From assembly GCF_009712605.1 (NCBI RefSeq), contig NZ_WASO01000009.1:143990-207989 (forward strand): a stretch of 64,000 nt of DNA, written 5' to 3'. Below the pieces are notes generated by a model that saw only the letters and a program-made list of their open reading frames with translations, did no database searches and was not told where the DNA came from. Source of the DNA: Paludibacter sp. Lineage in GTDB: Bacteria > Bacteroidota > Bacteroidia > Bacteroidales > Paludibacteraceae. Below, in pieces: positions 11,226 to 20,075 of the stretch. The translations under genes were made by a program, and so were the position numbers. Numbering within the stretch: the first letter of the stretch is position 1; each line of letters opens with the position of its first letter.

Positions 11226-12134
11226 TTAGAATATCTTGCGATAGATATGGCAATAAGGCGTTGTTCCCTTATGGTCGTAGTAGTCCTGGTGGTAATCCTC
11301 GGCCGGCCAAAAAGGTTCCGCAGGACGCAACGAGGTTGCCACTTTATACCCTTTTTCATTCAATATCCGGATATATTTTTCAGCAATGGCTTTTTGCTCT
11401 TCATTGGCATAAAAGATAGCCGAAAGATACTGCGACCCAATATCGGGACCCTGACCGTTGGTTTGTGTGAAATCGTGTGTTTCAAAGAATAGCTTCACCA
11501 GTTCTTCGTAACTGGTTTGCTGCGGATCGAAAACAACTTCGGTCGTCTCCAGATGCCCAGTTTCGCCGGTGCATACCTGTTTATAACTTGGATGATCGAC
11601 ATGGCCACCCATAAAACCAACCGTAGTTTCCATCACTCCCTTTGCTTTGCTAAAATGATACTCTGTGCCCCAGAAACAACCGGAGGCAAACCAGGCTTTC
11701 TGAAACGCCTGTTTATCGTCTGGAATAAAATTCATAGAAATAGAGTTAACGCAATGACGTGTATTTTTGGAAGTAAAACCCTCACCGAGAAAAACATGAC
11801 CGAGATGCGCTCCGCATTTGGCACAGGTTATTTCAGTACGTTGCCCATCGGCATCAGGTATACGCAGAACAGCTCCGGGAATCTCATCATCAAAACTGGG
11901 CCATCCGCAATGCGACTCAAACTTACTTTCTGACCGGTAAAGCGGAGCTCCGCATTGTTTGCACACATAAGTACCTTTCGCCTTCACATTCAATAATTTG
12001 CCCGTAAACGGGCGTTCCGTTCCCTTATGAAGAATTACATATTGTTCTTCCGGGGTCAAATCTTTATGTTGCATAACTGAAGATTGTAACAGTAAACTAA
12101 TCAAAATGAATAATATAGTTCTCATACCAAACAA
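11226..12134 (-). CDS. msrAB: Bifunctional peptide methionine sulfoxide reductase MsrB-MsrA with signal peptide
   Basis: The N-terminal half has CGWPSF and HLGHVF, which are MsrB motifs. The C-terminal half has GCFWGTE and the MsrA fold motifs. Confidence 0.8.
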   Translation of the reverse strand: MFGMRTILFILISLLLQSSVMQHKDLTPEEQYVILHKGTERPFTGKLLNVKAKGTYVCKQCGAPLYRSESKFESHCGWPSFDDEIPGAVLRIPDADGQRTEITCAKCGAHLGHVFLGEGFTSKNTRHCVNSISMNFIPDDKQAFQKAWFASGCFWGTEYHFSKAKGVMETTVGFMGGHVDHPSYKQVCTGETGHLETTEVVFDPQQTSYEELVKLFFETHDFTQTNGQGPDIGSQYLSAIFYANEEQKAIAEKYIRILNEKGYKVATSLRPAEPFWPAEDYHQDYYDHKGTTPYCHIYRKIF

Positions 12135-12615
12135 GTATTAAAGTAAAACACTCCCATAAAACATGTTTCGTAAAAGGGCTACAAATATACCATCACGGCA
12201 TAAGCGATTCCAAAAAATCAACTACAATAAAGCATAAATAACAGGAGAGATCACCTCACAGAATTTTCCTTCTTTCAAACCAAAAATAAGTCATTGGCCA
12301 CAATCAGCGCAAGAAGAAAGACGTAATTTTAATTTAATATCTGTTAAAGTTTTCCCGTAAAAATCGTTCTTTACCTTTCCAAAAGACTATATTTGCACAA
12401 CAAAACATATTAGACAATACTTAATTTAAGTAATTACAAACGAATTTAGATAAACAATTCATACACCATACAGCATAAACTACAGTTTAAATGCAGATAA
12501 CTCTAATAGACAAACTAATCTGACTCCTTCATCAAAATACTAATTCATAAATAATACTCTTTTAAAACCGTATCCGAAGCGTACGACAAAACTAATCACA
12601 TAACAACAATCAAAC

Positions 12616-13518
12616 ATGTATAATCTAAATAGCATTCCAATTGTCAAATATGATAATTTCTTAAAATCAAAACATATAACATGGAGTAGTGTTGGAGGTC
12701 GAGTTGAAGATTATCCGCAATATGACTTTGGAGACAGTATTATATGCAATTTTGATGAGAGGTTCAATTTGATTTTTTCTTTTAGATACTATGACAATAA
12801 AATATATTTGGTTCTGAAATTCAAGCCAAAGGATTACAAACTAAATATCAATGACAGTGTAAATTTTCTTTTTGAAAATGACACACTATTAAATTACACA
12901 ATATCTAATGAGCCTTATAAAGGAGGAGTATATTACGAGTCTGATGGCTCCAAATCTACATTTGTCAATTATTTTGAAACACTAATACAAATTAGCATGT
13001 CTGATTTAGAGATATTTTCAACTTATAAATTGTGTAATTATGCTCTCAATCTAAAATCATACAAGCTCATTGGAGGAAATAGAGAAAATGGCGCTTTTTG
13101 GCATGCAGGACGTAACTATAACAGCAATGATCCTATTAAAAGTAAAGCTGTATTTCAAGAAGCATTAAGACTATTTGCCTCAACATTTATAGATGTAATT
13201 AATCAAGAAGTACCAGATTATATTGAAACGACGATATCTTCCACTGATGAGACCTGCTATGTTTATCTTATGCATGATCTAAAAACCAATTTCTACAAAA
13301 TCGGTATTTCAAATAGTCCTTCATATAGAGAGAAAACATTGCAAAGCGAAAAACCGACAATTATTTTAATGCGTTGCAAGCGATTCCCCAAACGAAAAAT
13401 TGCCGAAATACTGGAAAAAACTTTGCACAGTACGTATAGTAACAAACGAATAAGAGGAGAATGGTTTTCTCTTGATACAGAAGACACAAATGACATTTCT
13501 CAAATTTTAAATGACTAA
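12616..13518 (+). CDS. Protein with a novel N-terminal domain (~215 aa) fused to a C-terminal T5orf172/GIY-YIG-type nuclease domain
   Basis: The C-terminal CYVYLMHDLKTNFYKIGISNSPSYREKTL...AEILEKTLHSTYSNKRIRGEWFSL matches the T5orf172 (MUG113) GIY-YIG pattern. The gene is strongly AT-rich. Confidence 0.55.
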   Translation: MYNLNSIPIVKYDNFLKSKHITWSSVGGRVEDYPQYDFGDSIICNFDERFNLIFSFRYYDNKIYLVLKFKPKDYKLNINDSVNFLFENDTLLNYTISNEPYKGGVYYESDGSKSTFVNYFETLIQISMSDLEIFSTYKLCNYALNLKSYKLIGGNRENGAFWHAGRNYNSNDPIKSKAVFQEALRLFASTFIDVINQEVPDYIETTISSTDETCYVYLMHDLKTNFYKIGISNSPSYREKTLQSEKPTIILMRCKRFPKRKIAEILEKTLHSTYSNKRIRGEWFSLDTEDTNDISQILND

Positions 13519-13879
13519 TAAAAAGCAGAATATGGAACTTAAAGATTTCATCAAAGAGACTTTAGCACAAATTACAAATGGTGTGGTTGAAGCACAAGAG
13601 CTAATTAAAAACACTGGTGCTTACATTAATCCAGAGGGTCGTCTCGAAGGCAATCAAGTTAGAACTGGTTTCGAAGGAGAATACAGATCTATTCAAAACG
13701 TAAAAATGAGTATTGCCGTCAAGGTTATCGAGAATACTCAAACAAAAGCAGCATTAGGAGTAGTCTCTGCATTTATAAATGCCGGAGCAGCAACCGCAAA
13801 CTCAGATTCCAACAGCGTAACGAACAGAATTGAATTTGAAATTCCTATTAGTCTACCAATTACGAATGTTACAAAATAA
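13511..13879 (+). CDS. Small trypco2-like protein, translationally coupled to the upstream gene
   Basis: The start overlaps the upstream stop, as ATGACTAA. MELKDFIKETLAQI ... IAVKVIENTQTKAALGVVSAFINAGAATANSDSNSVTNRIEFEIPISLP resembles the trypco2 consensus (L.DLI...L ... FWVV.LGAKG...ATHRVKLSL.P). Confidence 0.4.
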   Translation: MTNKKQNMELKDFIKETLAQITNGVVEAQELIKNTGAYINPEGRLEGNQVRTGFEGEYRSIQNVKMSIAVKVIENTQTKAALGVVSAFINAGAATANSDSNSVTNRIEFEIPISLPITNVTK

Positions 13880-13901
13880 GCACCATTGCTGGTGCTCTTT
13901 T
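13880..13901 (+). terminator. Intrinsic terminator after the two-gene operon
   Basis: GCACCATTGCTGGTGC hairpin followed by TCTTTT. Confidence 0.5.
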
Positions 13902-13954
13902 GCAAAGCGAGCCCGAGTCATATACATAGCGAAGCATTAGTGAACAGTACCCTA

Positions 13955-14212
13955 ATCAGGGAAACGCCTGACAGCGTTTAGCTCTGTATTGCGAGTCTTC
14001 CACGCCCCGATGAATCGGGGCGTTATTATTGGACAACGGCTACGCCGTTTTGTATCTGCATAATGTATGAGCACACTAAAGACAAAAGAACAACACAAAG
14101 ACTGACAGACTAAACGCCATCAGGCGTTACCTGTGAATAACCTCCGGATTCATCCGGGGGAAAAGACAGCGAATAGAAGCGACTGAACGCTGTAGGCGTT
14201 CCCCTAAAACAA
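13955..14212. repeat. REP/BIME-like structured repeat block, copy 1, upstream of the RAYT gene
   Basis: It contains short palindromes AACGCCTGACAGCGTT, CGCCCCGATGAATCGGGGCG, AACGGCTACGCCGTT, AACGCCATCAGGCGTT, CCGGATTCATCCGG and AACGCTGTAGGCGTT. The whole block recurs at 14668-14900 at roughly 75-80% identity. Confidence 0.55.
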
Positions 14213-14218
14213 CCAACC

Positions 14219-14665
14219 ATGAACAGCTACCGGCAAATTCTCTATCACATTGTATTCTGCACTTATAACCACGAAAACGCTCTTCCGGAAACAATGCATG
14301 AAGACCTTTATCGTTACATTTGGGGCATCGTCAAAAAGCGAAATTGTGTCCTATATCGGGTTAATAGCACCGAAAACCATATTCATATTCTATCTGACCT
14401 CCATTCAAGTATCTCGCTGGCCGATTATATCAAAGAGATCAAAACTGCCACCAACCGATGGATAAAAGAGAGCAGACAGTGTCCCAGTTTCATCTCGTGG
14501 GCAGACGGATATTGCGCTCTGACGTATACCTATCGCGATAAAGAAATGATTCTGAATTACATCAAAAATCAGAAGGAGCACCACAAAAAAACCAATTTTG
14601 AGGATGAATACAAAGCACTCCTCAAAGAGTTTGGTATAGAAGCTGACGAGAAATATATCTTCTAA
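14219..14665 (+). mobile_element. IS200/IS605-like Y1 (HUH) transposase, REP-associated tyrosine transposase type (RAYT, tnpA_REP)
   Basis: The ORF is 148 aa. The HUH motif is NHIHILS, and a catalytic Tyr sits in the YIKNQKEHH context (Y..NQ). It is flanked by REP-like palindrome blocks rather than IS ends. Confidence 0.7.
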
Positions 14666-14667
14666 GT

Positions 14668-14900
14668 TCTCAGGGAAACACCTAACGGCGTTTTGATTCT
14701 TTATTCCGGCTCTCTTCCACCACGATAAATCGGGGCGTTATTCACAGGCAACGGCTATCGCCGTTTTATTAACCCATAGATAATGCAGGAACAAAAAAAC
14801 AATGCCATCAGGCATTGCCTGTGAATAACCCTAGGATTCATCCAGGGGAAAAGAACATGAGCAAGCGTGACACAACGCTGTAGGTGTTAACCTATCGGAT
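14668..14900. repeat. REP/BIME-like structured repeat block, copy 2, downstream of the RAYT gene
   Basis: It is a direct-orientation copy of 13955-14212. Stems are maintained by compensatory changes, for example AACGCCATCAGGCGTT becomes AATGCCATCAGGCATT, and AACGGCTACGCCGTT becomes AACGGCTATCGCCGTT. Confidence 0.55.
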
Positions 14901-14990
14901 ATCTGGTGACAACAGCACTTCTATAATACGATTGCAGTACGATTCCAGCACATTGTAGCCCAATTCCATCCGCTTTTGCCCAAAAAATTG

Positions 14991-14998
14991 TATCTTTG
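14991..14998 (+). promoter_or_regulatory. Putative sigma-A -7 box TATCTTTG upstream of lysS
   Basis: It matches the Bacteroidetes TAnnTTTG -7 consensus 31 bp before the lysS ATG. The -33 TTTG is poorly spaced. Confidence 0.3.
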
Positions 14999-15028
14999 CG
15001 CCACTAATATTGACTGACTTATAAACCT

Positions 15029-16753
15029 ATGGAACTTAGCGAACAAGAGCAACTGCGCCGTGAAAGCTTAAACGGACTGAGAGCTCTGGGAATAGAACCC
15101 TACCCCGCCGCAGCTTATCAGGTTACGGCTCTTTCGGATAACATCAAATCTACCTATCAGGATGATGCCCCCCAACGTGAAGTAACTATCGCCGGTCGTA
15201 TAATGAGCCGTCGTATAATGGGGAAAGCCTCATTTGTAGAGCTTCAGGACTCTGCCGGTCGCATCCAGATTTATATCACCCGCGACGACATCAGCACCGA
15301 CGAAGAGAAAACCATGTACAATGTTGTTTTCAAAAAACTGCTTGACATCGGCGACTTCATCGGCATCAAAGGGTATGTTTTCCGTACACAAATGGGCGAA
15401 ATTTCGGTTCATGCTCAGGAATTGACCGTATTGAGCAAATCGCTTCGTCCGCTTCCTATTGTTAAATACAAAGACGGCGTGGCTTACGATGCTTTCGAGG
15501 ATCCCGAGCAACGCTACCGTCAACGCTACGTCGACCTCGTGGTAAACGACGGCGTAAGAGATATTTTCATGAAGCGCACCAAGGTGTTCAACTCCATGCG
15601 TAACTTCTTCAACGAACAGGGTTACGTCGAAGTGGATACTCCTGTGCTTCAACCTATTCCGGGCGGTGCTTCGGCACGTCCATTCATTACACACCACAAC
15701 GCACTGGATATTCCATTGTACCTGCGTATTGCCAATGAACTCTATTTGAAACGCCTTATTGTAGGCGGTTTTGAAGGGGTGTACGAATTCTCTCGCAACT
15801 TCCGTAACGAAGGTATGGACCGTACACACAATCCTGAGTTTACGGCCATGGAAATCTATGTTTCCTACAAGGATTACAACTGGATGATGGACTTCACCGA
15901 AGCCATGATCGAAAAAGTATGTCTGGATGTGAATGGCACAACCGAAGTAAAGGTGGGCGACAAGACCATCAGCTTCCAACGTCCGTTCAAACGCATCACC
16001 ATGATCGACGCCATCAAAGAACATACCGGTATCGACATCAACGGAATGAACGAAGAACAACTGCGCGATGTTTGCAAGCAACTGGGTATCGAAGCCAACG
16101 ACACCATGGGTAAAGGCAAGCTGATCGACGAAATCTTCGGCGAAAAGTGCGAAGGCAACTACATTCAGCCGACCTTTATCACCGACTATCCAATCGAAAT
16201 GTCGCCACTCTGTAAACGTCACCGCAACAATCCGGAACTGACAGAACGTTTCGAATTGATGGTTAACGGCAAAGAGTTGGCTAATGCATATTCAGAGCTG
16301 AACGACCCGATCGATCAGCGTGCCCGTTTTGAAGAACAATTGCGTCTGAGCGAAAAAGGCGACGACGAAGCAATGTTCATCGATCAGGACTTTTTGCGCG
16401 CACTCGAATACGGTATGCCTCCAACATCGGGTATGGGTATCGGCATGGATCGTCTGGTAATGTTGATGACCAATCAGGTGGCTATTCAGGAAGTATTGCT
16501 CTTCCCGCAAATGCGCCCCGAAAAGGTGATCCGCAAAGACAGCGCCGAAACTTTCATGTCGGTCGGCATTCCCGAAGCATGGGTAGAAACTGTCAACAAA
16601 GCAGGTTTCGTCACCGTAGCATCATTGAAAGAGCAAAACCCGAACAAACTTCATCAGGATTTGTGCGGACTCAATAAAAAACTAAAATTAGGACTGACCA
16701 ACCCGACCAAAGACGACGTAACTTTGTGGGTTGAAAACGCTAATAACCGTTGA
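15029..16753 (+). CDS. lysS: Lysine--tRNA ligase (class II), with a Bacteroidetes-type C-terminal extension
   Basis: The N-terminal anticodon-binding OB-fold region and class II motifs are present, including [15 protein letters not shown] and [11 protein letters not shown]. Confidence 0.9.
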
Positions 16754-17821: not shown

Positions 17822-19165
17822 ATGAGAACCATCAGCATTAACATTGACAAAACCTTTGGATTTATTTCCAAAGAAGCTGTTTCGGGCTACGAAGCAGCAG
17901 TAAAAGCAAGCAATGCTGCTTTACACGCCGGAACCGGCAAAGGAAATGACTTCCTGGGTTGGCTCAACCTACCCTCGTCAACAACAGCAGAACATCTGGC
18001 CGACATCGAAGCTACAGCCAAAATCCTGATCGACAACTGCGAAGTAGTGGTTGTGGTTGGTATCGGCGGCAGCTACCTCGGTGCAAAAGCAGTAATCAAC
18101 GCTCTTTCCAACAGCTTCGACTGGTTACAAACCGAACGTAAATATCCTGTAATCGTTTATGCCGGTCAGAATATCGGCGAAGATTACTTGTTCGAACTGC
18201 AATCTTTCCTGAAAACAAAAAAATTCGGTATCATTTCCATCTCAAAATCGGGAACAACTACCGAACCTGCATTGGCTTTCCGTCTGTTGAAATCACAGCT
18301 TGAAGCTCAACAAGGCAAAGAAGCTGCAAAAAAACTGATCGTTGCAATCACAGATAAAGCCCGTGGAGCTCTGCGTACATTAGCTACTCAGGAAGGTTAC
18401 AAAACATTCGTCATCGAAGATAACATTGGTGGTCGTTACTCATTCCTGACTCCGGTTGGTTTGTTGCCAATCGCCACTGCTGGTTTCGACATCAAACAAT
18501 TGGTTGCCGGTGCTGCCGATATGGAAAAAATTGCCGGTTTGGAAACTCCGTTTGCAGAAAACCCTGCTGCCATCTACGCTGCAACACGTAACGAACTCTA
18601 CAAAAGCGGCAAAAAGATCGAAATTCTGGTGAACTTCCATCCGAAACTTCACTTTGTTGCCGAATGGTGGAAACAGCTTTATGGTGAAAGCGAAGGTAAA
18701 GAAAACAAAGGTATTTTCCCTGCTGCCGTCGACTTCACTACCGACCTTCACTCTATGGGTCAATGGATTCAGGAAGGCGAACGCACTATTTTCGAAACTG
18801 TCATCTCAGTAAAAGAAGCTAACCATAGCGTTAGTGTTCCTTCTGATGAAGCAAACCTCGACGGACTGAATTTCCTTGCCGGAAAACGCGTTGACGAAGT
18901 AAACAAAATGGCTGAACTGGGCACCATGCTGGCTCACGTTGACGGTGGCGTTCCCAACATCAAAATCGAATTGCCTAAACTGGACGAATACAACCTCGGC
19001 CAATTGCTTTATTTCTTCGAAAAAGCATGTGGTATCAGCGGTTACGTTCTCGGCGTGAATCCTTTCGACCAACCGGGCGTTGAAGCATACAAAAAGAACA
19101 TGTTTGCTCTGCTCGACAAACCAGGCTACGAAGCCGAAAGCAAAGCTATTAAAGCGAAACTTTAA
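17822..19165 (+). CDS. pgi: Glucose-6-phosphate isomerase
   Basis: [13 protein letters not shown] and SKSGTTTE are PGI sugar-isomerase motifs. Confidence 0.9.
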
Positions 19166-19210
19166 TTCAGAATAAAGAGCAAAGAACAAAGAGTAAAGAT
19201 CTAAAACCAC

Positions 19211-19567
19211 ATGCACAATTTCAGGAATCTTGAAATATGGAAGAGATCAATTAGTTTAGTTACAGAAATATACAAACTAACAAATTCTTTTCCTCAACAA
19301 GAACGATACGGGCTGACTTCGCAAATGCAAAGAGCCGCAGTATCGTGTCCTTCAAATATAGCAGAGGGTTCTGCAAAATCAAGTAAAAAAGAATTTGCTC
19401 ATTTTTTAGAAATTTCTCTTGGTTCTTTGCTTGAATTAGAAACCGAACTTATTGTTTCATTAAATCTCGAATATGTTGATTCTGTTCGTTTTAATGAAAT
19501 CCAGACCAGTCTCATTGAACTTCAAAAAATGATTAACGGATTCAAAAATCATTTGGACAAGGAATAG
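19211..19567 (+). CDS. Four-helix-bundle protein (23S rRNA intervening-sequence protein / Avd-like family)
   Basis: FRNLEIWKRSISLVTEIYKLT...QMQRAAVSCPSNIAEGSAKSSKKEFAHFLEISLGSLLELETELIVS is characteristic of the family. The gene is AT-rich and flanked by imperfect inverted repeats. Confidence 0.6.
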   Translation: MHNFRNLEIWKRSISLVTEIYKLTNSFPQQERYGLTSQMQRAAVSCPSNIAEGSAKSSKKEFAHFLEISLGSLLELETELIVSLNLEYVDSVRFNEIQTSLIELQKMINGFKNHLDKE

Positions 19568-19622
19568 TCTCTGATTTTTGATTCTATCTTTATTCTTTTC
19601 TCTTTATTCTTTGTTCTAAATT

Positions 19623-20075
19623 ATGAAACGTGCCATCTTTCCCGGAACATTCGACCCATTCACTATCGGTCATTACGACATTGTGAAACGCGGACTAAAT
19701 CTTTTTGATGAGATTATCATCGGTGTGGGTGTAAATCAGGCAAAGAAGACTTTCTTTACCGTTGAAAAACGTGTGGAAATTATTCAGATGGCGTTTAAAA
19801 ATGAACCTCGTATCAAGGTGCAGGAATACAACACACTGACCGTCAATTTCGCCAAAGAAGTGGATGCTCAGTTTATTTTGCGGGGATTGCGCTCTGTAAG
19901 CGACTTTGAATACGAACGTACCATCGCTGACGCCAACAAACATCTGGAAGGCATTGATACTGTAATTCTCAACACCGATCCGGCCTATTCGTTCATTTCA
20001 TCAACAGTGGTACGCGATCTACTGGCTTACGGGAAAGACATTTCTGCCTTTTTACCTCCCGATACCAGTCTATAA
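19623..20075 (+). CDS. coaD: Phosphopantetheine adenylyltransferase
   Basis: [18 protein letters not shown] is the nucleotidyltransferase HxGH motif. Confidence 0.85.

Follow-up and report, generated by a model that had tools for sequence, protein, structure and literature searches.

This report concerns a 64,000-nucleotide stretch of Paludibacter sp. DNA (contig NZ_WASO01000009.1, positions 143,990 to 207,989; hereafter the window) and, within it, a small AT-rich islet carrying two adjacent genes that we call open reading frame 1 (ORF1) and ORF2. An initial annotation had described them as a candidate uncharacterized two-gene conflict or defense module, in which a GIY-YIG nuclease with a novel N-terminal region is translationally coupled to a trypco2-like protein. 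The two reading frames are indeed present in the sequence, and the features of the islet are listed below, with structural elements taken from AlphaFold2 (AF2) models and model confidence given as the predicted local distance difference test (pLDDT).

12388..12395, + strand: candidate Bacteroidetes-type -7 box TATATTTG (pattern TAnnTTTG), ~220 nt 5′ of ORF1
12600..13882, + strand: mobile two-gene cassette, the block of nucleotide similarity to other contigs (blastn)
12616..13518, + strand: ORF1, 300 aa; stand-alone T5orf172/MUG113 GIY-YIG endonuclease with a family-specific N-terminal domain
12616..13095, + strand: ORF1 N-terminal all-beta, sandwich-like domain, residues ~1-160 (all-beta over ~7-153 in AF2)
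13144..13209, + strand: ORF1 long linker helix joining the two domains, residues 177-198 (AF2)
13255..13506, + strand: ORF1 GIY-YIG (T5orf172) nuclease domain, residues 214-297 (alpha/beta in AF2)
13511..13879, + strand: ORF2 as first called, 122 aa
13532..13879, + strand: ORF2 from the conserved start, 115 aa, with an in-frame alternative ATG at 13511
13538..13603, + strand: ORF2 N-terminal helix, residues 10-31 in the 122-aa numbering (AF2 pLDDT 76-86)
13685..13852, + strand: ORF2 long beta-hairpin, strands 59-73 and 102-114 (AF2)
13878..13897, no strand assigned (scored on the - strand): GC-rich hairpin, probable terminator, directly 3′ of the ORF2 stop

Separability and expression of the two genes

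Comparison with other contigs divides the pair. Contig L021 matches the window only over 12600-13518, at 85.3% nucleotide identity, with the similarity ending at the ORF1 stop codon; it encodes an 86%-identical ORF1 without ORF2 and carries a putAbiC gene next. Conversely, contig L181 matches only over 13334-13878, at 82.7% nucleotide identity (blastn), and belongs to a lineage of at least 20 contigs that keeps ORF2 intact next to a mobilizable element with relaxase, MobC and Toprim genes. Similarity to ORF1 begins there only at about codon 240, leaving an 81-aa remnant in which Arg238 and the GIY and YIG motifs are gone. Other genes lie downstream of more distant ORF1 homologues (57-63% identity). 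A hidden Markov model of the ORF2 family found no match in 83 ORF1-family loci (a downstream gene was callable in 57 of the 83) or in 80 viral T5orf172 loci, and tblastn of ORF1 found nothing within 8 kb of 17 ORF2-family genes. The pair is limited to the window, contig L203 and one contig from the Joint Genome Institute (JGI), at ~83% nucleotide identity or above, and is absent from L021, L018, L019, 80 metagenome loci, the 80 viral loci and the 17 ORF2 loci. The occurrence of ORF1 without ORF2 in L021, of ORF2 with only an ORF1 remnant in the L181 lineage, and the lack of co-occurrence elsewhere indicate that each gene is autonomous, and their union appears to be recent and confined to one clade. 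The proposal of a new, dedicated and recurrent two-gene system is therefore only partly supported, since orthologous pairs do not recur outside a clade of more than ~80% nucleotide identity.

Several details of the cassette deserve mention. The left similarity boundary is the same in L203 and L021, and to the left of the cassette these two contigs, otherwise unrelated there, share a short similar stretch, GAAATAGAAA.T.TG.AAAA.CAGT (L203 125-253 and L021 4430-4496), which could hint at a preferred insertion site. On its 5′ side the L203 cassette is accompanied by a 42-aa ORF resembling the N-terminus of a restriction/modification enzyme. The 81-aa MUG113 ORF of the L181 lineage was considered as a functional 'mini' partner of ORF2 and rejected, because its homology to ORF1 begins 3′ of the GIY, YIG and Arg positions.

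ORF1 and the 122-aa frame share the octamer ATGACTAA, a stop/start overlap that had been taken as a sign of translational coupling. The overlap exists in the sequence; it probably does not exist between the genes, as ORF2 most likely starts at ATG 13532 and not at the overlapping ATG. The methionine of MELKDF, encoded at 13532, is the start in 31 of 33 ORF2 homologues, and the NCBI protein that is 100% identical to ORF2 (P0001, 'hypothetical protein', Paludibacter sp.) is 115 aa long. The upstream ATG at 13511 is missing in the L181 lineage; it is formed by the last Asn-Asp/Glu codons of ORF1 and is present in L021, where ORF2 is absent. With the start at 13532 the genes lie 13 nt apart without overlap, the octamer is probably incidental, and coupling through it becomes doubtful.

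The genes are nevertheless probably co-transcribed, to judge from the positions of promoter boxes. A sigma-70 promoter scan gave scores no better than those of shuffled sequences and was replaced by a search based on the Bacteroidetes -7 motif. The box at 12388 is the sole + strand TAnnTTTG in the intergenic region preceding ORF1, and there is none on the + strand between 12964 and 14315, hence none just before ORF2; the lack of a -7 box of its own makes transcription of ORF2 together with ORF1 probable. The terminator-like hairpin at 13878..13897 reads on the + strand as a stem followed by TCTTTTG and lies outside the block common to L203.

The ORF1 nuclease and its family

ORF1 is 100% identical to an NCBI entry labeled 'GIY-YIG nuclease family protein [Paludibacter sp.]', and the C-terminal nuclease domain predicted from sequence motifs in the initial annotation is borne out by Pfam: residues 215-294 match MUG113 (E 3.8e-11, 43.8 bits against a cut-off of 22.3) and T5orf172 (E 4.3e-7, 30.8 bits against a cut-off of 20). 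The AF2 model, built on a 96-sequence alignment, has a mean pLDDT of 89.3, and its C-terminal domain adopts the GIY-YIG alpha/beta fold. Tyr217 is invariant among the 96 sequences, Tyr227 is conserved, and the K228-I229-G230 that follows it, Arg238 and Glu282 are at least 90% conserved. The order of the motifs suggests that these Tyr, Tyr, Arg and Glu residues are equivalent to the catalytic residues of I-TevI; the domain looks catalytically competent, and ORF1 would thus be expected to act as a nuclease.

The N-terminal region, for which no recognizable relative had been claimed, likewise stays empty in every library searched: residues 1-210 have no match in Pfam, NCBIfam, PADLOC, PDB sequences, phages or plasmids, and tblastn of ORF1 or of its N-domain against sequenced phages and plasmids returned no match. 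The Zn-finger modules CapR, DUF723 and DUF4397 have no Pfam match in ORF1, no CxxC motif occurs among nine long ORF1 homologues checked, and the sole hit of ORF1 in PADLOC-DB 2.0, to PDC-S57, is at chance level (E 0.033). The N-domain is acidic (pI 5.4). ORF1 relatives are encoded on 496 confirmed metagenome stretches and are common in Bacteroidota metagenomes, and the N-domain is a real, conserved domain of a large, mainly Bacteroidota family. Many relatives are 400-630 aa long, and most are extended at the N-terminus (long homologues P0052-P0115, 380-630 aa) by a repeat, single or double, that bears the signature W..DG..V..GD..I; these repeats weakly match lipoyl/biotinyl-type barrel-sandwich domains (PDB 2dnc and 1k8m; E ~0.1); the window ORF1 does not have this lipoyl-like extension.

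The neighbors of the family are heterogeneous. Among 87 non-redundant neighbors at the 83 ORF1-family loci, no Pfam family occurs in more than two cases; the neighbors recorded for the family include AbiTii, AbiH, putAbiC, GmrSD_N, nSTAND3, KAP NTPase, HNH, Mrr, PLD and DUF4238, as well as resolvase, transposase and housekeeping genes. The T5orf172 domain of ORF1 is 50-59% identical to domains on viral contigs. For 79 viral matches the similarity is confined to this domain; the sole exception is IMG/VR contig UViG_3300008150_000404 (L101 5001-5669), where it extends into the N-domain (residues 54-297, 32% identity).

T5orf172 is a modular homing-endonuclease family found at boundaries of genetic exchange, and 87% of its phage homing endonucleases carry Zn-finger DNA-binding modules (Barth et al. 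2023, PMC10448857). ORF1 resembles the phage T5orf172 homing endonuclease genes (HEGs; the ICP1 Gp53/121/130 type) and their domesticated relatives (PLE CapR and Odn) in its C-terminal T5orf172 domain with the conserved Glu, in the separate N-terminal module joined to it, and in its gene-sized mobility, with breakpoints at gene edges or between domains and variable presence. It differs from them in that its N-module is an acidic beta-sandwich without a Zn-finger of the CapR/DUF723/DUF4397 kinds, in that it is chromosomal rather than phage-borne, and in the lipoyl-like repeats added by its longer relatives. Since neither an acidic N-domain devoid of Zn-fingers nor a chromosomal location matches the phage HEG template, a single-gene defense nuclease is an equally good reading of ORF1. 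PD-T4-3, a single-protein GIY-YIG defense nuclease (PDB 9u75; a 5-hydroxymethylcytosine-specific restriction endonuclease), aligns with ORF1 over the nuclease core alone (69 residues), and its remaining part is unrelated to the ORF1 N-domain.

The ORF2 family and its probable relation to Pepco

The ORF2 protein of the window has nothing significant in Pfam, NCBIfam, PADLOC or PHROGs and one weak match among plasmids, yet its family is very large: when 1.84 billion representatives were searched with a profile, 3373 relatives (cluster representatives at 50% identity) were recovered, nearly all of them stand-alone proteins of 105-150 aa. In the predicted structure the helix is followed by two strands around a Gly/Ala/Ser-rich loop of low confidence (76-98). 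Hydrophobic and polar residues alternate strictly along the strands (strand moment 0.82), and the final strand ends in the family motif IEFEIPISLP, followed by only six residues (ITNVTK). Tails of nine residues or fewer are found in 78 of 150 representatives, and charged tails of 15-40 aa in about 50.

These features recall Pepco. Trypco1 and Trypco2 were defined by their location next to the trypsin-like peptidases of VMAP systems (Kaur et al. 2020, PMC7159879) and have been renamed Pepco (Evans et al. 2025, bioRxiv 10.1101/2025.11.14.688446). The 117-aa Streptomyces subrutilus protein SsPepco (WP_069919158.1) pre-assembles into nonameric or decameric beta-barrels, which turn toxic once the Avs4 protease cuts a tail of ~20 residues after Ile97 (bioRxiv 10.1101/2025.11.14.688446). 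Such protease-triggered toxicity makes Pepco an effector and not the adaptor that trypco2 had been called in the initial annotation. ORF2 shares with Pepco its size (~115 aa) and stand-alone form, a predicted N-terminal helix placed where SsPepco has its amphipathic basal helix, long predicted amphipathic strands around a Gly-rich loop with an amphipathicity comparable to that of SsPepco, and residence of the family in conflict and mobile-element loci. Unlike Pepco, it has no adjacent trypsin/caspase-STAND or VMAP partner, and no trypsin-like or caspase-like protease (Avs4/STAND, VMAP) stands beside any of the ORF2 relatives examined; canonical trypco2 genes, on Streptomyces plasmids, sit directly 5′ of Avs4/FxsT-like tetratricopeptide-repeat genes. 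Nor does ORF2 have a cleavable C-terminal tail, whereas SsPepco continues for 33 residues after the domain and is cleaved after Ile97. ORF2 also differs in being found in Bacteroidota and phages and not in Actinobacteria or cyanobacteria.

Profile comparisons point in the same direction. Trypco2 is the sole Pfam family that recurs among ORF2 relatives, in two sets: it is matched by 16 of 33 close homologues at E<=10 and by 42 of 150 representatives at E<=0.01 (best 1.5e-5), and one relative, P0239, reaches 23.7 bits where the cut-off is 24.2. SsPepco (sequence from the supplement of the paper), run as a positive control, scores 65.6 bits. A phmmer search with SsPepco against the fetched relatives had a best E of 0.012, in a tiny database. 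PDB sequence searches with profiles A1, A2 and A3 gave chance-level matches only. We conclude that ORF2 represents a family of its own, whose remote kinship with Trypco2/Pepco is probable, if not demonstrable.

The genomic contexts of the family are varied, the gene directly 5′ of ORF2 relatives being different every time, yet phage and prophage immunity operons recur among them. In Bacteroides phage BS-TP2 the homologue lies 6 nt 3′ of a helix-turn-helix regulator and beside hicAB; in Riemerella phages it is the first gene of the repressor-integrase operon; in a Porphyromonas Mu-like phage it lies 6 nt 3′ of the S24 repressor. The same immunity-operon layout is seen in a Spongiimicrobium prophage, at L012 and L017, and in two further metagenomic prophage types with Peptidase_S24 repressors. 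Elsewhere the relatives lie 3′ of hsdS in type I restriction-modification (R-M) systems (L009 and L010), 3′ of AbiGi and a 156-aa gene (L007), 3′ of an HSDR_N nuclease (L012), beside a SacI-like endonuclease (L013) and 3′ of an integrase (L006). Overall, the family behaves like a moron or defense-island gene.

Lambda rexAB, which lies next to cI, and P22 sieA and sieB are prophage immunity-operon morons that exclude superinfecting phage, and the repressor operon is the classical position of membrane-acting exclusion genes expressed in lysogens. ORF2 relatives resemble these morons in position: in temperate phages and prophages they belong to the repressor operon, which diverges from the early lytic genes; they have no sequence relationship to rexAB, sieA or sieB, and the window ORF2 lies outside any prophage.

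Further observations concern individual loci. In five independent phage or prophage lineages (loci L192-L194, L197-L199, L189, L188 and L012) the homologue and a Peptidase_S24 repressor of the cI/LexA type are encoded in one operon, which curiously recalls the name 'peptidase co-occurring'; S24 repressors being common, this linkage may only reflect expression in lysogeny. The BS-TP2 homologue, gp45 (XPO95312.1; L187 5001-5390; 129 aa), is annotated as 'Alpha-D-ribose 1-methylphosphonate 5-triphosphate diphosphatase PhnM', which is almost certainly a mis-annotation from a structure-alignment pipeline. In two Pseudomonadota genomes (L014 6709-9780 and L015 6549-9811) a distant relative (~33% identity) keeps the same place between genes of 429/416 aa and 484/487 aa that by eye look amidohydrolase/dihydropyrimidinase-type, which would be a metabolic rather than a conflict context.

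Explanations of the islet

On balance, and with moderate confidence, we read the islet as two horizontally acquired, autonomous conflict-type genes that are adjacent here by chance, rather than as an obligate two-component system. This reading builds on the observed domain assignments, cassette boundaries, gene separability and genomic contexts. In ORF1 the N-domain, probably a sensor or recognition module, is tethered by the long helix to the nuclease domain, and the gene moves as a gene-sized cassette without a fixed partner, in the manner of homing-type or single-gene defense nucleases. ORF2, by analogy with SsPepco, would use its amphipathic beta-hairpin to assemble into an oligomeric small beta-barrel, and by acting on the cytoplasmic membrane this barrel would bring about superinfection exclusion or abortive infection; both pore formation and a role in defense are carried over from that analogy. 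Because ORF2 has neither a cleavable tail nor a partner protease, its gating must differ from that of canonical Pepco and might operate through expression level, a phage trigger or the variable neighbor.

Some of the evidence weighs against chance adjacency. Contig L203 matches window 12602-13882 at 82.9% nucleotide identity (blastn) between unrelated flanks, which makes the two-gene block an exact unit of similarity, and the pair recurs on a 2672-bp JGI contig, so that a functional link within that clade is still conceivable. Together with the tight 13-nt spacing, the absence of a recognizable promoter for ORF2 alone and the retention of an ORF1 3′ end fused 5′ of ORF2 in the L181 lineage, these observations would suit a young, lineage-restricted two-gene defense system in which ORF1 detects infection with its N-domain and cleaves DNA and ORF2 serves as the coupled effector at the membrane, or in which ORF1 licenses ORF2. 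We judge such a system unlikely, as an equally diverged ORF1 stands without ORF2 in L021, ORF2 persists on at least 20 contigs with a remnant of ORF1 devoid of the GIY and YIG motifs and Arg238, the 83 and 80 ORF1/T5orf172 loci and the 17 ORF2 loci reveal no co-occurrence, and either gene has many unrelated neighbors. In another reading, ORF1 would be a selfish, free-standing homing-type endonuclease gene, with ORF2 as flanking cargo acquired through co-conversion or recombination at nuclease-induced breaks, in which case neither gene need serve the host. The documented homing character of T5orf172 (PMC10448857), similarity breakpoints exactly at or inside ORF1 (12600-12602, 13518 and ~13334), the identical left boundary in L203 and L021, a sporadic distribution with heterogeneous neighbors, and the 50-59% identity of the T5orf172 domain to viral-contig domains are all consistent with homing. 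An acidic N-domain (pI 5.4) without Zn-finger modules and unmatched in sequenced phages and plasmids speaks against homing; the gene is chromosomal, no nuclease-free cognate target allele was identified, and the many defense-gene neighbors fit a defense-island gene equally well. We regard a purely selfish origin as rather unlikely.

The membrane-active part of the preferred reading depends on the kinship of ORF2 with Pepco, where a second group of results is unfavorable. The trypco2 assignment made at first stands as regards layout; the window protein itself has no match to Pfam Trypco2 (PF19631) at E<=1 and none in NCBIfam, thus falling below the threshold that SsPepco passes, and the relation at family level, described above, is weak. 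Comparison by hhalign of ORF2 alignment A2 with four Streptomyces trypco2 proteins gave a marginal result (E 0.021, probability 2%, 42 columns), A1 against the same four was not significant, and neither A1 nor A2 was significant against the single SsPepco sequence. The AF2 monomer model is of low confidence (pLDDT 62.8), Foldseek of this model against PDB found nothing below E 0.7, and a minority of distant relatives lie in apparently housekeeping or metabolic surroundings (L014-L016, L190 and L195). ORF2 might accordingly be no Pepco-like pore former at all, the similarity to Trypco2 being a coincidence of composition and topology and the protein serving another role in the lysogeny module, as a repressor accessory, an anti-repressor or an injection-blocking Sie-type factor. 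Such a role would suit the family's consistent position beside repressors, its own C-terminal motif IxFxIPxxLP ([IV]xFx[VI]P..hP) and its extra insertion of ~25 residues after the helix, both foreign to SsPepco. We hold it to be rather unlikely, given that Trypco2 is the sole recurrent Pfam match in two independent sets of relatives and nearly reaches the curated cut-off, that length, order of secondary structure and strand amphipathicity agree with Pepco, and that the marginal A2 alignment falls on the topologically equivalent SsPepco hairpin. A bolder extension of the kinship, which we consider quite improbable, would make the family a protease-independent, often tail-less Pepco branch, a promiscuous 'constant component' joined 3′ to varied sensor or regulator genes and gated by its neighbor. 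Its partners would be the T5orf172 nuclease, hsdS, AbiGi, HSDR_N nucleases and, most often, prophage cI/LexA-type S24 repressors; in the window the pore would be gated by the ORF1 N-domain, and in prophages the self-cleaving S24 repressor would act on tailed forms during SOS or induction.

Returning to two autonomous genes as the preferred account, the most interesting outcome of the analysis is the ORF2 family, probably Pepco-related, protease-less and often tail-less. Pepco/Trypco2 proteins were recently shown to be among the most abundant protease-licensed death effectors in bacteria, and here a very large, unannotated family (the 3373 clusters) occupies prophage immunity operons and R-M/Abi loci. 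If its members still form pores, proteolysis would not be the sole control of such barrels, and Bacteroidota phages, among them those of gut Bacteroides, Porphyromonas and Riemerella, would gain a widespread candidate gene for superinfection exclusion; should the constant-component arrangement prove true, it would represent a new wiring of a membrane-killing effector into lysogeny and defense. ORF1 adds a T5orf172 nuclease family with an acidic N-module that is not a Zn-finger, which bears on how GIY-YIG nucleases gain specificity. For annotation, the case is a reminder that two genes standing close together in a single genome are not thereby a system: comparative data split this pair.

Surroundings of the islet

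The genes next to the islet in the window, assigned by Pfam, are the following.

11226..12134, - strand: msrBA (PMSR and SelR domains)
14219..14665: IS200-like Y1_Tnp transposase of the RAYT type
15029..16753: lysS (class II tRNA synthetase and anticodon-binding OB fold)

GC content is 28-33% across ~12200-13600 and 42-48% in the flanks, in agreement with the earlier description of a horizontally acquired, AT-rich islet between msrBA and RAYT/lysS. No protease or NTPase adjoins the pair, the neighbors of ORF2 being ORF1, msrBA and the RAYT gene, and PADLOC assigns the pair to no named defense system; on both points the first description was right. Applied to all 51 window genes, PADLOC (PADLOC-DB 2.0) returned isolated single matches, probably homologues of housekeeping genes, with no Avs4/STAND or VMAP protease among them and no complete known defense system, which indicates that the islet stands alone among core genes outside any defense island. 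Rfam searches over 11900-15100 gave sub-threshold matches only.

An exact look-up of the RAYT protein found no record, and no empty-site allele was retrieved. The gene is flanked on both sides by directly oriented copies of a ~250-nt composite repeat, at 13956-14206 and 14670-14894 (73-88% identity), made up of repeat families D1-D3 and D5 with several GC-rich hairpins (e.g. ACGCCCCGATGAATCGGGGCGT), two of which score as terminator-like; the arrangement looks like a REP/BIME cluster with its own RAYT. A second dip in GC content (32-33%) lies at 19200-19800, just 3′ of a 447-aa ORF (17822-19165), where it overlaps small ORFs at 19211-19564 and 19623-20072 and may mark another small acquired insert.

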